Shown in pieces: positions 3,034 to 8,271 of a stretch of 41,208 nt of DNA. Both the position numbers and the translations under genes were made by a program. Under the pieces are notes generated by a model that ran no database searches, was not told where the DNA came from, and saw only the letters and a program-made list of their open reading frames with translations. The stretch is from a virus. Location of the stretch: the UHGV virus genome UHGV-0041851. The stretch is one strand, 5' to 3'. Within the stretch, counting starts at the first letter, position 1; each line of letters begins with the position of its first letter.

Positions 3034-4227
3034 GTGACCTGGGACGATCACAAGAAGAATTTTGCTCGCCTGGCGCGAGATGGTGGTTACACCATCGCAC
3101 AGTATGCCGCCGAGTTTAATCTTAACCCTAATACCGCACGTCGTTATCTCCGTGCCTTCAAAGAAGACACCAGGACTGCGGACAGCCGCAAGCCAAATAA
3201 GCCAGTCAGGAAGCCACTAAAAGGCATGATCATTGATCACTCTAATGATCAACATGCAGGTGATCATATTGCGGCTGAAATAGCGGAAAAACAGAGAGTT
3301 AATGCCGTTGTCAGTGCCGCAGTCGAGAATGCGAAGCGCCAAAATAAGCGCATAAATGATCGTTCAGATGATCATGACGTGATCACCCGCGCCCACCGGA
3401 CCTTACGTGATCGTCTGGAACGCGACACCCTGGATGATGATGGTGAACGCTTTGAATTCGAAGCTGGCGATTACCTGATAGATAACGTTGAAGCGCGGAA
3501 GGCCGCGCGCGCTATGTTGCGTCGGTCCGGGGCCGATGTTCTGGAAACCACTCTTCTTGAAAAGTCTCTTTCTCATCTCCTTATGCTGGAGAACGCCAGG
3601 GATACGTGTATTCGCCTGGTGCAGGAAATGCGCGATCAGCAAAAAGACGATGATGGAGGTACTCCGCCTGAATACCGTATCGCGAGCATGCTAAACAGCT
3701 GTTCCGCGCAGATAAGCAGTCTGATCAACACCATTTACAGCATCCGGAATAACTATCGAAAAGAAAGCCGGGAGGCGGAAAAGCACGCTTTGTCTATGGG
3801 GCAAGCTGGCATTGTTAAGCTGGCATACGAACGAAAGCGTGAAAATAACTGGTCAGTGCTGGAAGCAGCTGAATTCATCGAGGCGCATGGTGGGAAAGTT
3901 CCGCCCCTGATGCTGGAGCAAATCAAAGCCGATCTGCGTGCTCCTAAGACCAATACCGATGATGAGGAAAGGCAAACAGCCGTCGGTGGCCCTTCTCTTG
4001 AAGATCTGGACAAAGTTGCGCGAGAACGGGCCGCCAACCGCCGCGCCGATGCCGCATTGTGGATTGAGCAGCGTAGGGAAGAAATCGCCGATATCGTTGA
4101 TACAGGCGGTTATGGAGATGTTGATACTGAAGGTGTATCAAACGACCCATGGCTGGAACAAGACCTGGACGAAGACGAGGAGGAAGACGAAGAAGTTACC
4201 CGCAAGCTATACGGGGATGATGATTAA
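3034..4227 (+). CDS. pacA: PacA, terminase pac-recognition subunit
   Basis: 397-aa ORF (GTG start) [28 protein letters not shown]...; acidic C-terminal tail; contains the GATC-rich pac site. Confidence 0.9.
3225..3412 (+). other. pac packaging site (clustered GATC-containing hexamers)
   Basis: Two clusters of TGATCA/G-type elements inside pacA: four at 3226-3268 and three or four at 3357-3412, matching the known architecture of P1 pac. Confidence 0.8.
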
Positions 4228-5711
4228 TGGCCAGAAGTTGCGTAACGGATCCACGTTGGCGCGAGCTGGTGGCGCTATATCGTTATGACTGGATTGCTGC
4301 CGCTGATGTTTTGTTCGGCAAAACACCTACCTGGCAGCAGGATCTGATTATTGAGTCTGTGCAGGAACAGGGTAGCAAGACATCTGTTTCGTCTGGTCAC
4401 GGTACCGGGAAATCAGACATGACTTCTATCATGATCATGTTGTTCATAATCATGTATCCCGGTGCCCGCGCCATTATCGTTGCGAACAAAATTCAGCAGG
4501 TAATGACCGGTATATTCAAGTACATCAAGATAAACTGGGCTACTGCCACCAGCCGTTTTCCATGGCTTGCTGATTATTTTGTTCTGACAGAAACCGCTTT
4601 CTATGAGGTTACTGGTAAAGGTGTATGGACTGTAGTACCGAAGGGCTTTCGTCTGGGAAGTGAAGAAGCTCTCGCCGGTGAACACGCAGATCATCTTCTG
4701 TATATTATCGATGAAGCCTCCGGTGTCAGTGATAGAGCTTTCGGTATCATCACCGGTGCTCTTACCGGACAGGATAACCGCATCTTATTGCTGTCACAGC
4801 CTACACGCCCAAGCGGCTATTTCTACGATACACACCATAAACTGGCCAAGCGTCCTGGTAACCCTGATGGCGTTTATACGGCGATCACGCTTAACAGTGA
4901 GGAATCACCGTTGGTAACGCCAGCATTTATCAAAATGAAGCTGGCGGAGTACGGCGGGCGTGATAACCCTATGTACATGATTAAGGTACGCGGCCTATTC
5001 CCTAAATCACAGGATGGCTTCCTTCTTGGGCGTGATGAGGTTGAACGTGCAACGCGGCGGAAAGTCAAGATTGCAAAAGGATGGGGCTGGCTTGCATGTG
5101 TGGACGTTGCTGGTGGTACGGGACGGGATAAGTCCGTTATCAATATCATGATGGTGTCCGGCCAGCGAAATAAACGCCGTGTAATCAACTATCGAATGCT
5201 GGAATACACAGACGTTACAGAAACGCAGCTTGCCGCCAAAATTTTCGCAGAATGTAATCCTGAGCGATTCCCCAATATCACCATAGCGATAGACGGCGAT
5301 GGCCTGGGTAAAGCAACGGCGGATCTGATGTACGAGTATTATGGTATTACCGTACAGCGTATACGCTGGGGTAAAAAGATGCATAGCCGTGAAGATAAGA
5401 GCCTGTACTTTGATAAACGTGCTTATGCCAACGTTCAAGCCGCAGAGGCCGTAAAATCTGGTCGTATGAGACTGGATAAGGGTAATGAAACTATTGAGGA
5501 AGCGTCGAAAATCCCTGTAGGGATTAACTCCGCAGGTCAATGGAAGGTGATGAGTAAGGAGGATATGAAGAAAAAACTCAACCTGCACTCACCAGACCAT
5601 TGGGATACATATTGTTTCGCTATGCTGGCTGATTATGTTCCCCAGGATGAAGTGCTTAGCGTCGAAGACGAAGCGCAGGTTGATGAAGCTCTGGCATGGC
5701 TTAATGAATGA
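4227..5711 (+). CDS. pacB: PacB, terminase large subunit
   Basis: 494-aa ORF overlapping the pacA stop (ATGA); ATPase/nuclease-like length and operon position. Confidence 0.9.
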
Positions 5712-5714
5712 ATA

Positions 5715-5731
5715 TTTGCTCTAATAAATTG
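5715..5731 (+). promoter_or_regulatory. C1 operator-like site immediately after pacB
   Basis: TTTGCTCTAATAAATTG matches the C1 operator consensus at 15/17; lies at the head of the icd/ant leader region. Confidence 0.55.
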
Positions 5732-5744
5732 TGTTTTTTAACTA

Positions 5745-5885
5745 CCGATGTTACATTGAGCCTGACCTCTTGCGCCTTGAGGCATTTTCGGTTTATGCTT
5801 ATCAGGCACCTCATTAAAACGGGTGCCGGGATTGGCCTCCCGCTTAAGTCTAAGGCGATACAGACGCCGCTCGCGTCTTTTTTTT
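5745..5885 (+). ncRNA. Candidate c4-like antisense RNA / structured leader
   Basis: About 140 nt between the operator and an intrinsic terminator; contains hairpin GGCACC..GGTGCC and a CCUCC element (5836-5840) within ATTGGCCTCCCGCTTAAGTC that is imperfectly complementary to the icd ribosome-binding region (GTCTAAGGAGGCTGCCAAT, 6033-6051). Confidence 0.3.
5863..5885 (+). terminator. Rho-independent terminator-like hairpin plus T8
   Basis: GACGC-CGCTC-GCGTC stem-loop followed by TTTTTTTT. Confidence 0.55.
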
Positions 5886-6050
5886 GTATCGGCGTACACG
5901 CACACCTCTACAATGGTGGGCTGTATGGGGCTACCTTCGGGTAGGCTGGTTACCTTGGACGCCAGTAAGGCCAACTCCGTACAGTCCACCGCCAGCAAGA
6001 TTGGTCTCTTCTGCGGTGGTTACATACCAACGTCTAAGGAGGCTGCCAAT

Positions 6051-6272
6051 ATGGCTACTATCCCTACCCCAACTCATCCTGAATTTATCTGGCGCTTTTA
6101 CTCCTGCCAAAAACGTCACTATCACTTCGTTATTGCACCGACAGAAGATGAGGCCCGCTCTCAGCTTCCTGACGCCCCATGTATTTTCTCTGCCCGTTTT
6201 TCCACTGATTCACGCAATTCTCTCAGTTACTGGTGCCTCCCTGTTAACGCTTCTGCTCAGGAGGGACTATGA
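6051..6272 (+). CDS. icd: Icd-like small protein (73 aa) translationally coupled to ant
   Basis: ATG at 6051 preceded by TAAGGAGG at good spacing; 73 codons; stop overlaps the ant start (ATGA at 6269-6272); size and arrangement match P1 icd as I recall it. Confidence 0.55.
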   Translation: MATIPTPTHPEFIWRFYSCQKRHYHFVIAPTEDEARSQLPDAPCIFSARFSTDSRNSLSYWCLPVNASAQEGL

Positions 6273-7387
6273 GAACGTCATTAGTCACCCGTGAAGAGAT
6301 GATCGAGGCAATTGAACAGCACACTGCCTGTATCAGTACCAGGGATATACCAGGCGTTATTGCCAATTACTTCATGATCACCAAACAACTTTACCGGAGA
6401 AAGGACAAGAACGCGGTTCACCGTATCCTGTTGTCTGATATCCGCGAATACCTGCTCGAACAGGGTCATCTGAATTACGCAACCGCCGCAGCCGAAGCAC
6501 GCAAGGAGGCACACAGAATGAAAGCAACTAACGTTAAATCAGAAAAAATTCATGCACCTTCAGTTCAAGAATCGGAGCTGGTGGTTGTTCAGAATCAGTC
6601 TGATGAAATTCCCGTTCTGGAATGGCAGGGAGTGCGTGTAGTGACAACCGAGACTCTTGCTAGAGGGTATGGGACAGAAACAATCCGTATTCGCCAAAAT
6701 CATCATGAGAACAAAGTACGCTTTGTTGAAGGGAAGCACTTTTTCAAAGTTGAAGGAGAATCATTGCGCGAGTTGAAGCACAGAGTAGCTTTAAACTACT
6801 CTGTAAAAATTGCTCGCAATGTTCGCTCACTCACCCTCTGGACAGAACGCGGCGCAGCCCGCCACGCTAAAATGCTCGAAACCGATCAGGCATGGGCATT
6901 CTTTGAAAAACTGGAAGACAGCTACTTCCGACAAAAAGAACAGCAACCGATCGCAATCCCCCAGACGCTTCCTGAAGCCCTACGCCTGGCTGCCGAACTG
7001 GCTGAACAAAAGCAACTTCTGGAACAGAAAGCCCACCAGCTAAATCAGCAGCTGGTGGCCGCCGCTCCTAAAGTCGATTTTGCCGACCGGGTATCAGTAG
7101 CTAAAGGGATCCTGATTGGGAATTTTGCAAAGGTTGTTGGACTTAAACAAAACGCGCTGTTTGTCTGGTTACGGGAGAACGGCATCCTGATAGCGTCCGG
7201 TGGACGTAAAAATGTGCCGTTCCAGCAGTACATCAACGCGGGGTATTTCACGGTGAAAGAAGTGGTGCTGGATGATGAAGATGGCTACCAGATACGGTTG
7301 ACGCCTCAATTAACGGGTAAAGGCCAGCAGTGGTTGACGCGTAAACTGCTCGATGCTGGCTTGTTAAAACCGGTGGCGGCTGAATAA
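6269..7387 (+). CDS. ant1: Antirepressor Ant1 (ORF6N-like central domain, KilA-C-like C-terminus); nested Ant2 from in-frame ATG at 6518
   Basis: 372 aa (about 42 kDa); in-frame ATG at codon 84 has a strong AAGGAGG Shine-Dalgarno and gives 289 aa (about 32 kDa), matching the reported 42/32-kDa Ant1/Ant2 pair; domain call is from motif recognition only. Confidence 0.7.
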   Translation: MRTSLVTREEMIEAIEQHTACISTRDIPGVIANYFMITKQLYRRKDKNAVHRILLSDIREYLLEQGHLNYATAAAEARKEAHRMKATNVKSEKIHAPSVQESELVVVQNQSDEIPVLEWQGVRVVTTETLARGYGTETIRIRQNHHENKVRFVEGKHFFKVEGESLRELKHRVALNYSVKIARNVRSLTLWTERGAARHAKMLETDQAWAFFEKLEDSYFRQKEQQPIAIPQTLPEALRLAAELAEQKQLLEQKAHQLNQQLVAAAPKVDFADRVSVAKGILIGNFAKVVGLKQNALFVWLRENGILIASGGRKNVPFQQYINAGYFTVKEVVLDDEDGYQIRLTPQLTGKGQQWLTRKLLDAGLLKPVAAE

Positions 7388-7419
7388 TGGAAGAATGCCC
7401 GGTTGATGCCGGGCATAAT

Positions 7420-8271
7420 TTATTGCGCGCTTTCGGGGTTGTCGTTTACTGGCTGCCCCTTCTTGGTTTTACGGCTGCGCGTAACTGATGCGGCTGACTT
7501 AACCTTTTTCTCTTCGCGAGTGATGGCAATTTGTTTTTTTACATTTTCAATATCTGCCAGGCGATATATTTTTGCTTGCGGCCAGCGGTCGCAGATGATC
7601 GGTTCTATGGAGTCATAAAGGCTAAATTTTGCTTTTTCGAATTCACCGTTGATGATAATTCCATCACGGAGAGTTTCATCGCAGATAAACACGCCACACA
7701 GTGGCACATGGTAACTAACTGATTTACCATCATTGTAGTTAGGGCTACTGGAAATGTAGTGGACGCGCAGCATTGTTTCGCTAAAGCCGTGTACGCGCAT
7801 ACGGAATTTTTCATCCTCCGGGTACTGCTTCATTAGCTCTTTTGTTGCTTCTAGGTTCTCTATGTATTTCGCACTGTGCTCATTGATCCCCGCGCTTTTT
7901 TGGATGCGAATGTCCTTATCAATCAGATGAATAATGCGGCCAGCGGTCATGTTGACGCTGTTCACAGCTTCTGTCTGATAAGTTGTAACCTTACGCACAC
8001 CGCGAAGGATGTTAGGCACTGGATATAAAATAGTCTTTGGGATATTGAGGTCTGGGTACTGTTCCAGTTCCCGCGCCATTAAAGTCCATTTATCAATTTC
8101 AGCCTGAATGCTGTCAGTTTCTTTGAACGGTAGAACGACAACCGGGCGTACAGGACGACCGTCGCTGGCTGTATCAACGTGTTGGGCGCGTGCAACAGCT
8201 TTTTTTAGAAAGAGATCCCTGAAGCTGACGAACTCCTGGTACAGTTGTTCGCCGTAGACATAATTTATCAT
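7420..8271 (-). CDS. c1: C1 repressor of lysis
   Basis: 283-aa ORF of the length reported for P1 C1; flanked upstream by coi and operator-like sites; convergent with ant. Confidence 0.9.
   Translation of the reverse strand: MINYVYGEQLYQEFVSFRDLFLKKAVARAQHVDTASDGRPVRPVVVLPFKETDSIQAEIDKWTLMARELEQYPDLNIPKTILYPVPNILRGVRKVTTYQTEAVNSVNMTAGRIIHLIDKDIRIQKSAGINEHSAKYIENLEATKELMKQYPEDEKFRMRVHGFSETMLRVHYISSSPNYNDGKSVSYHVPLCGVFICDETLRDGIIINGEFEKAKFSLYDSIEPIICDRWPQAKIYRLADIENVKKQIAITREEKKVKSAASVTRSRKTKKGQPVNDNPESAQ

Follow-up and report, generated by a model that had tools for sequence, protein, structure and literature searches.

The window analysed here is a 41,208-nt stretch of the virus genome UHGV-0041851. 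Between pacB and icd lies a non-coding gap of 340 nt, and from there the genes icd and ant read toward the convergent repressor gene c1 (Table 1). The stop codon of icd overlaps the start codon of ant in an ATGA at 6269–6272, as expected of translational coupling. The Icd protein is 80% identical to P1 Icd and 100% identical to that of phage vB_EcoM-673R5, and the region as a whole is 99.3% identical to 673R5 and about 88% identical to RCS47. The icd Shine-Dalgarno sequence, AAGGAGG, occupies 6036–6042. Two icd copies are present in the relatives RCS47, JL22, and 673R5. A second icd/ant/C4 module like that of RCS47 was sought across the window, and none is present there.

Table 1. Genes, RNA elements, and predicted pairing sites between pacB and c1, in window coordinates.
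Feature	Position	Strand	Basis or remark
pacB	4227–5711		ORF context
C1-operator-like site, TTTGCTCTAATAAATTG	5715–5731	+	directly after the pacB stop codon, upstream of the module
IsrK-family small RNA / leader	5806–5883	+	Rfam RF01394 isrK
a1, UUGGCCU	5832–5838	+	complementary to C4 a'
b1, GUCUAAGG	5848–5855	+	complementary to C4 b'; direct repeat of b2
Intrinsic terminator, AGACGC-CGCUC-GCGUCU then U run	5862–5883	+	terminator scan and Rfam structure line
C4 antisense RNA gene	5909–5996	+	Rfam RF01695
b' loop of C4, CCUUGGAC	5953–5960	+	pairs with b1 and b2
a' single-stranded segment of C4, AGGCCAA	5968–5974	+	pairs with a1 and a2
a2 target site, UUGGUCU	6001–6007	+	one G-U pair with a'
b2 target site, GUCUAAGG	6032–6039	+	overlaps the icd Shine-Dalgarno, 11 nt before ATG
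icd, 73 aa	6051–6272	+	ATG at 6051
Antirepressor gene ant, 372 aa	6269–7387	+	Pfam ORF6N and ANT/KilAC domains; annotated ant in RCS47
c1 repressor gene	7420–8271	-	RCS47 annotation of homologous ORF; convergent with the module

The first RNA element in the gap matches the Rfam isrK model over its full length (model positions 1–77 of 77) at 60.8 bits, against a gathering threshold of 50, and this score places the RNA of about 78 nt in the IsrK family. A second trait of the family, a Rho-independent terminator ahead of an antirepressor operon, is found here as well, with read-through past it presumed; the terminator scan called 5862–5878 plus the T run. In the predicted fold, hairpin 1 spans 5806–5826 and hairpin 2 (CGGGA-UUGGCC-UCCCG) spans 5827–5842 and presents a1 in its loop, b1 is single-stranded, and the intrinsic terminator closes the RNA. 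The c4-a1b1 model (RF03163) gives a sub-threshold match at 5793–5846 (20.5 bits against a gathering threshold of 46.7, E = 0.006), whereas P1-type loci score 52–57 bits with it. The element in the window works like c4-a1b1, yet it is not a member by score.

The second RNA element matches the Rfam C4 model at 75.9 bits (gathering threshold 45), again over its full length (model positions 1–87 of 87), and alignment with the annotated 77-nt c4 of P1 places the mature RNA at about 5915–5993. The C4 match, the a2 and b2 sites with b2 on the ribosome-binding site, the upstream a1 and b1 sites, and the icd-ant overlap, which are among the features of a C4 system, are all present. The b1 site is identical to b2, and a1 differs from a2 by one base. 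The minimum-energy fold of the read-through RNA 5806–6075 forms exactly a1:a' and b1:b', and cognate duplexes of C4 with a1/b1 have energies of -28.5 to -33.3 kcal/mol, compared with a mean of -17.9 kcal/mol for non-cognate ones. It is probable that 5715–7387 is an RNA immunity module of the P1 immI type, where the probability concerns what the parts are and the role of C4 as the antisense effector.

Upstream of these RNAs, the site at 5715–5731 has two mismatches to the P1 C1 operator consensus, which we take to be ATTGCTCTAATAAATTT; with this consensus there are 7 C1-operator-like matches in the window, against 0.31 expected. The distance from the site to a1 is 117 nt, and in P1 the distance from Oc4 to a1 is about 115 nt. 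The site thus appears positionally equivalent to P1 Oc4/Op51 and may function as an operator. A candidate promoter for the IsrK-like RNA, TTGCGC-18-TATGCT, is weak (8/12 consensus positions), and the promoter scanner called no consensus promoter for this RNA and none between the IsrK terminator and C4. The proposed promoters are weak matches that were aligned by eye to stronger promoters of lambdoid relatives. With a gap of only 25 nt between the terminator and C4, C4 and icd-ant would have to come from read-through; the layout and the example of Gifsy-1 (PMC4825925) both point to read-through past 5883.

Relatives of the locus were retrieved from viral contigs by the Icd protein together with the conserved initiation region AGGAGGCTGCCAWTRTGGCTAC, which yielded 164 loci with 51 unique leader sequences and 13 a/b combinations, here called specificity types. 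Nine sequences were skipped by the automated parsing of C4 loops; seven of these were read by eye and contributed 4 further types. A scan of genome contigs with the 14-mer GGTGCCGGGATTGG returned random matches only, in unrelated phyla. In Rfam terms the upstream element is c4-a1b1 in P1-type loci and isrK in loci like that of the window, and the strong terminator with its U run is kept in all IsrK-type loci of the alignment. Covariation was assessed in 22 representative loci that cover the 13 specificity types.

In this alignment the predicted pairing of C4 with both sets of sites is nearly invariant while the sequences themselves change. C4 and a1/b1 are paired in 99.7% of cells, with compensatory changes at 9 of the 15 pairs, and the covariation score of 0.657 compares with a shuffle mean of 0.185 (reached by 0 of 500 shuffles) and with at most 0.124 when the partners are slid against each other. 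For C4 and a2/b2 the corresponding figures are 100% of cells, 9 of 15 pairs compensatory, and a score of 0.631 against a shuffle mean of 0.159 (0/500). Taken site by site, a1:a' has 7 pairs (99.4% of cells paired, 5 compensatory), b1:b' has 8 (100%, 4 compensatory), a2:a' has 7 (100%, 5 compensatory), and b2:b' has 8 (100%, 4 compensatory). The a and b specificities recombine independently, in that TTGGAAC or TTGAGAC occurs with either GTCAAAGG or GCAAAAGG. Two further complementarities were seen: an alternative helix between the 3' arm of C4 (5986–5992) and 6013–6019, paired in 100% of cells with 2 compensatory pairs, and a complementarity flanking the terminator (5856–5862 with 5885–5891), paired in 83% of cells.

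The sequence-only reading of this locus had rightly recognized a P1 C4-type circuit before icd-ant, but it mistook both the antisense element and its polarity, proposing that a leader segment, ATTGGCCTCCCGCTTAAGTC, is imperfectly complementary to the icd initiation region, GTCTAAGGAGGCTGCCAAT. Both segments exist, at 5831–5850 and 6032–6050 rather than at 5829–5848 and 6033–6051; the first is the middle of the IsrK-like RNA, and the C4 gene sits between the two. Their complementarity is also real, consisting of ungapped 16-nt arms at 5831–5846 and 6035–6050 (12/16, or 75%), but it lies within chance. The best duplex of the two segments has an energy of -13.8 kcal/mol and consists of the GGCCUCC:GGAGGCU core alone, and 4.6% of the window's 82,376 20-mers (both strands) do no worse against the same target, which amounts to about 14 overlapping windows in every 300 nt; 7.3% of the segment's shuffles do so too. 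When the segments are lengthened to 35 nt and 27 nt, the energy is -16.6 kcal/mol, a value reached by 26% of shuffles. Nor was the expected conservation seen among the 22 loci: the pairing of AUUGGC and CCUCC with GCCAAU and GGAGG occurs in 58.7% of cells, compared with 58.9% in shuffles, and the covariation score is 0.009 against a shuffle mean of 0.010 (reached by 372 of 500), with 1 of 13 pairs compensatory. In most types CCUCC is replaced by ACCCC, which in the RCS47 type goes with a compensating change of the hairpin's 5' arm from GGGA to GGGG, and the choice between GCCAAU and GCCAUU varies independently of a1; the close relative L025, for example, has GCCAUU with a1 unchanged. The CCUCC (5836–5840) is not an exposed loop, as had been suggested, because it falls mostly in the 3' arm of the predicted hairpin CGGGA/UCCCG. 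Complementarity of the kind expected of a direct cis-antisense element, that is, beyond chance, exposed, and conserved, was not found. A pairing of IsrK with its own initiation region in another register was considered for the other types and set aside; no consistent site emerged, and the energies range from -7.2 to -18.4 kcal/mol across types, with an initiation region that is nearly invariant.

The segment is moreover of the same sense as its supposed target and so cannot mask b2. The direct repeat that had been noticed, GTCTAAGG at 5848–5855 and 6032–6039, is 100% identical and is the b1/b2 pair of C4 targets. A second direct repeat had been missed, GATTGGCCTC at 5830–5839 and GATTGGTCTC at 5999–6008, and corresponds to a1/a2. 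Both repeats are conserved and covary with the C4 loops. A small RNA of about 80 nt had been expected here, and the IsrK-family RNA is predicted at this place. Antisense control of ant, likewise proposed, is most likely, only through C4 at 5909–5996 rather than through the flagged segment.

In phage P1, C4 is processed from the operon transcript, binds a2/b2, and blocks the translation of icd, which prevents ant expression; its 5' end is made by RNase P, and the untranslated icd mRNA is terminated by Rho. Work on C4, a1-b1, a2-b2, and icd-ant in the immI regions of P1 and P7 was reportedly carried out by Citron and Schuster in 1990 and 1992, Biere and colleagues in 1992, and Hartmann and colleagues in 1995. 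The P1 record (GenBank AF234172) lists, in order, Oc4, the promoters P2c4 and P1c4, a "putative a1 / b1 target site for C4 RNA", c4 (77 nt), a2, b2, icd, and ant1/ant2. The window has the same succession of C1 operator (here a C1-operator-like site), promoter(s) (here weak candidates), a1 (7 nt), b1 (8 nt), C4, a2 (7 nt), b2 (8 nt) on the icd ribosome-binding site, and icd overlapping ant, with similar spacings (between b2 and the ATG, P1 has 10 nt and the window 11 nt). It differs in that the leader scores as isrK rather than c4-a1b1 and ends in a clear intrinsic terminator, in that its a/b sequences are distinct from those of P1 and P7 and so represent a different specificity type, and in that the module is found between pacB and c1 instead of next to sim. 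Two of these traits are specific to the lineage, namely the module's placement and the possession of an IsrK-type leader instead of a P1-type one. The antirepressor compared with that of P1 has, in the window, ORF6N and ANT/KilAC domains.

The closest parallel for the leader is the isrK-orf45(STnc1160)-anrP locus of the Salmonella prophage Gifsy-1, where the IsrK promoter gives rise to a short terminated RNA as well as to a read-through mRNA (Hershko-Shalev et al., 2016; PMC4825925). IsrK provided in trans raised anrP translation 139-fold, and the middle of IsrK pairs with a downstream region that is itself a processed RNA, STnc1160 (PMC4825925). The window shares the full-length isrK match above the gathering threshold, the three hairpins including the terminator, the presumed read-through toward an antirepressor gene by way of a C4-like processed RNA, and the complementarity of the middle of IsrK to a downstream region; it differs by the icd gene that separates C4 from the antirepressor. 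Also present in the window, in the 5' arm of C4 at 5913 and 5925, are the two AUGs 12 nt apart that were called the starts of orf45. This frame gives no impression of being conserved as coding sequence, because it runs without a stop into icd in the window, whereas in the RCS47 type (L001) a TAG within b2 terminates it. The comparison suggests that "orf45" of Gifsy-1 is a C4 gene read as a protein frame. A search of the phage collection for Gifsy-1 isrK, by way of a related locus, found phage 118970_sal3 only.

Pairs of isrK and C4 have already been annotated in Stx2 phage F039 (GenBank LC710660) and noted in APSE phages (PMC7313666). In both, as in the window, isrK directly precedes C4, and the next gene is of a regulatory or antirepressor type and has the same initiation region, AGGAGGCUGCCAUUAUGGCUAC, while the downstream genes and the a/b specificities are others. 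Both sources list the two RNAs without stating that IsrK carries a1/b1.

On these comparisons a mechanism can be proposed for the window. Transcription would start upstream of 5806, probably under the control of C1, and most transcripts would stop at the terminator at 5862–5883 to give the 78-nt IsrK-family RNA, while read-through transcripts would carry C4, icd, and ant. C4 would be cut from the read-through transcript, and its b' loop and single-stranded a' segment would base-pair to the b2 and a2 sites that the icd-ant mRNA carries. Because b2 overlaps the icd Shine-Dalgarno, C4 would block icd translation, and because ant is coupled to icd and Rho ends untranslated icd mRNA in P1, antirepressor synthesis would be blocked as well. 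As same-sense copies of a2/b2, a1 and b1 would compete with them for the same C4 loops, pairing with a' and b' in cis in the read-through precursor, and pairing in trans, as part of the short terminated RNA, either with C4 itself or with the long transcript where it contains C4. If the short RNA behaves like IsrK of Gifsy-1, its overall effect in trans would be to activate downstream translation. The flagged segment would then be a same-sense mimic of the C4 target, with an expected trans effect opposite to the repression first envisaged for it. In this scheme the 3' end of the IsrK-like RNA, C4 processing, and Rho-dependent polarity are modelled on P1 and Gifsy-1, as are, directly or by deduction, the translational block and the sign of the IsrK effect. 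The chance that the short RNA is a trans-acting activator or decoy is about even or slightly lower.

The principal alternative, which seems rather unlikely, is that a1 and b1 work in cis only, either by locking the C4 loops in the unprocessed read-through RNA, as in structure A of Hershko-Shalev et al., or by guiding the folding or processing of C4, the short RNA being a by-product with no trans function. The minimum-energy fold described above, in which a1 and b1 pair with a' and b' in cis, is in favor of such a role, and the conserved helix between 5986–5992 and 6013–6019 suggests alternative folds of the precursor. The Gifsy-1 authors themselves explained activation as a structural switch within the long mRNA rather than as titration of C4 in trans, and found that the cis mutations G28A and G31A raised basal translation instead of lowering it (PMC4825925). 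From Rfam model positions, and not from the Gifsy-1 sequence, we infer that G28 and G31 fall in a1 and C162 and C159 in a'; on this mapping a simple decoy model is at odds with the Gifsy-1 data, since changes equivalent to a1 raise basal translation, and an altered basal expression in cis mutants speaks for a role in cis. Against an exclusive role of this kind, the short RNA of Gifsy-1 is stable and abundant and activates 100-fold or more in trans, it binds Hfq, going by the name of its Rfam family, and the terminator is kept in every IsrK-type locus.

A different role for the leader sites is offered by control of transcription as in phage P4. In P4, the CI RNA acts with seqA and seqC to bring about premature transcription termination of the replication genes. 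The module in the window resembles P4, by analogy, in having a presumably processed antisense RNA that lies between two sites complementary to it, both of the same sense and both carried by its own transcript, and differs in that the downstream site covers the icd-ant ribosome-binding site, the outcome in P4 being premature termination. C4 pairing with nascent a1/b1 might accordingly set the efficiency of termination at 5862–5883 and so autoregulate read-through into c4-icd-ant. The end of b1 only 6 nt before the terminator stem, the conserved complementarity that flanks the terminator, and the likening of the IsrK locus to P4 seqA/CI/seqC by the Gifsy-1 authors (PMC4825925) would favor this; it is nonetheless improbable, as the flanking helix can form in no more than 83% of cells and constitutive STnc1160 strengthened, rather than weakened, the growth arrest mediated by IsrK in Gifsy-1 (PMC4825925). 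The original proposal, that 5831–5850 is itself a cis-encoded antisense element whose AUUGGC and CCUCC, by pairing to GCCAAU and GGAGG in the icd initiation region, would repress icd, is close to refuted by the missing conservation and has hardly any likelihood left, even though a cofold of IsrK with 5997–6075 gains 8.6 kcal/mol over the separate folds in the window type.

In summary, the module fits into known families without standing out among their members, and the picture of control by C4 is already known and is left unchanged. That IsrK carries a1/b1, together with the three-way covariation in 13 types, goes slightly beyond the sources consulted and follows directly from them. The records of the closest phages, 673R5, RCS47, and JL22, list proteins only in the region of the module, so the RNA elements are a gain in annotation, and the 13 specificity types constitute a ready set of natural compensatory variants with which the a1/b1 copy can be tested. 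A broader interpretation may tentatively be offered, its parts being considered jointly: IsrK-family RNAs in general may be a1/b1 target mimics of C4 antisense RNAs; the short terminated RNA may be an anti-antisense that acts in trans by titrating C4 or opening the precursor; mimic, antisense, and target may make up a three-RNA switch; the two-site a/b code, with at least 13 independently recombining combinations, may define RNA-based immunity groups among P1-like and Stx/lambdoid phages; and P1-like phages with two modules may carry orthogonal codes. For the phage itself, the window carries a complete RNA-level antirepressor control module, of the kind that decides whether a P1-like prophage stays repressed, and the comparison ties the separately named elements IsrK of Salmonella, c4-a1b1 of P1, and seqA of P4 into one module family.

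The IsrK-C4-icd-ant module, comprising an IsrK-like RNA, the C4 antisense RNA and the icd and ant genes, lies in the region 5700-8271, flanked by pacB on one side and by the 3' end of c1 on the other, whereas in P1 immI adjoins sim. Only a single module is present in the window; RCS47, JL22 and 673R5 have two icd matches apiece. In some viral contigs, such as those carrying loci L013 and L070, a window-type and a P1-type module lie on one contig with differing a/b codes, that is, different combinations of the a and b sequences that are complementary to the C4 loops a' and b'. Locus L083 carries IsrK-C4 modules as a tandem pair (4570-4822 and about 5233-5500), roughly 400 nt apart, with unlike a/b codes and with an ORF of its own behind each.

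In a large group of IsrK-C4 modules (L307-L383), the a1 site within IsrK reads UUGGCGU, while more than ten different b1 sequences occur; some of the initiation regions differ from that of the window (for example, GACUACCGGGGCUGUCACCAUG), and several of the modules have more G-U pairs in b1:b' than in b2:b', b2 being the site that, in the window, overlaps the Shine-Dalgarno sequence of icd. In the b2 region of L135 (upstream of 6126), a tandem array of about ten 7-nt units, CACCAAT, separates a2 from the Shine-Dalgarno sequence, creating multiple copies of CAAUCA, a partial target of C4 b'. In L052 (around 1100-1210), an interior part of pacB is fused directly to ...CCAACGTCTAAGGAGGCTGCCAATATG, such that IsrK, C4 and a2 are deleted and icd is retained together with its initiation region and b2. 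This could be either a natural deletion releasing icd-ant from control by C4 or an artefact of assembly.

A scan of the window with the P1 C1 operator consensus, allowing at most three mismatches, returned seven matches against 0.31 expected. The putative site at 5715-5731 is placed like Oc4 of P1.

Putative C1-operator-like sites in the window
Position	Placement	Basis
2409		consensus match
5715-5731	immediately 3' of the pacB stop, about 117 nt upstream of a1	consensus match
8366		consensus match
8830	just past the c1 start	consensus match
8913	just past the c1 start	consensus match
24955		consensus match
28805		consensus match

The segments CGAUACA (5856-5862) and UGUAUCG (5885-5891) are complementary and lie on either side of the IsrK terminator and its U run. 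Relatives show joint changes in the two segments (GACAC/GUGUC), with 83% of pair-by-locus cells paired and compensatory changes at three pairs; this pairing may form a longer terminator stem in the read-through RNA, or may have a role in termination control. Downstream, CCACCGC (5986-5992), which forms the 3' arm of the stem that closes C4, is complementary to GCGGUGG (6013-6019), shortly 3' of a2. Across the 22 aligned representative loci, 100% of cells are paired in this helix, with two compensatory and two one-sided changes, and it is included in the predicted minimum-energy fold of the read-through RNA. It may represent a precursor conformation competing with the mature C4 fold, or may mark the 3' processing site.

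The 5' arm of C4 contains two AUGs, at 5913 and 5925, 12 nt apart, which agree in spacing and position with the start codons of 'orf45' in the Salmonella prophage Gifsy-1, at A107 and 119-121 (PMC4825925). In the window, the AUG frame runs stop-free into icd and would yield a 119-aa fusion, while in the RCS47 type (L001 sequence, read by eye) it is ended by a TAG inside b2; the frame is therefore not conserved. What was called 'orf45' in Gifsy-1 may be no more than the C4 gene.
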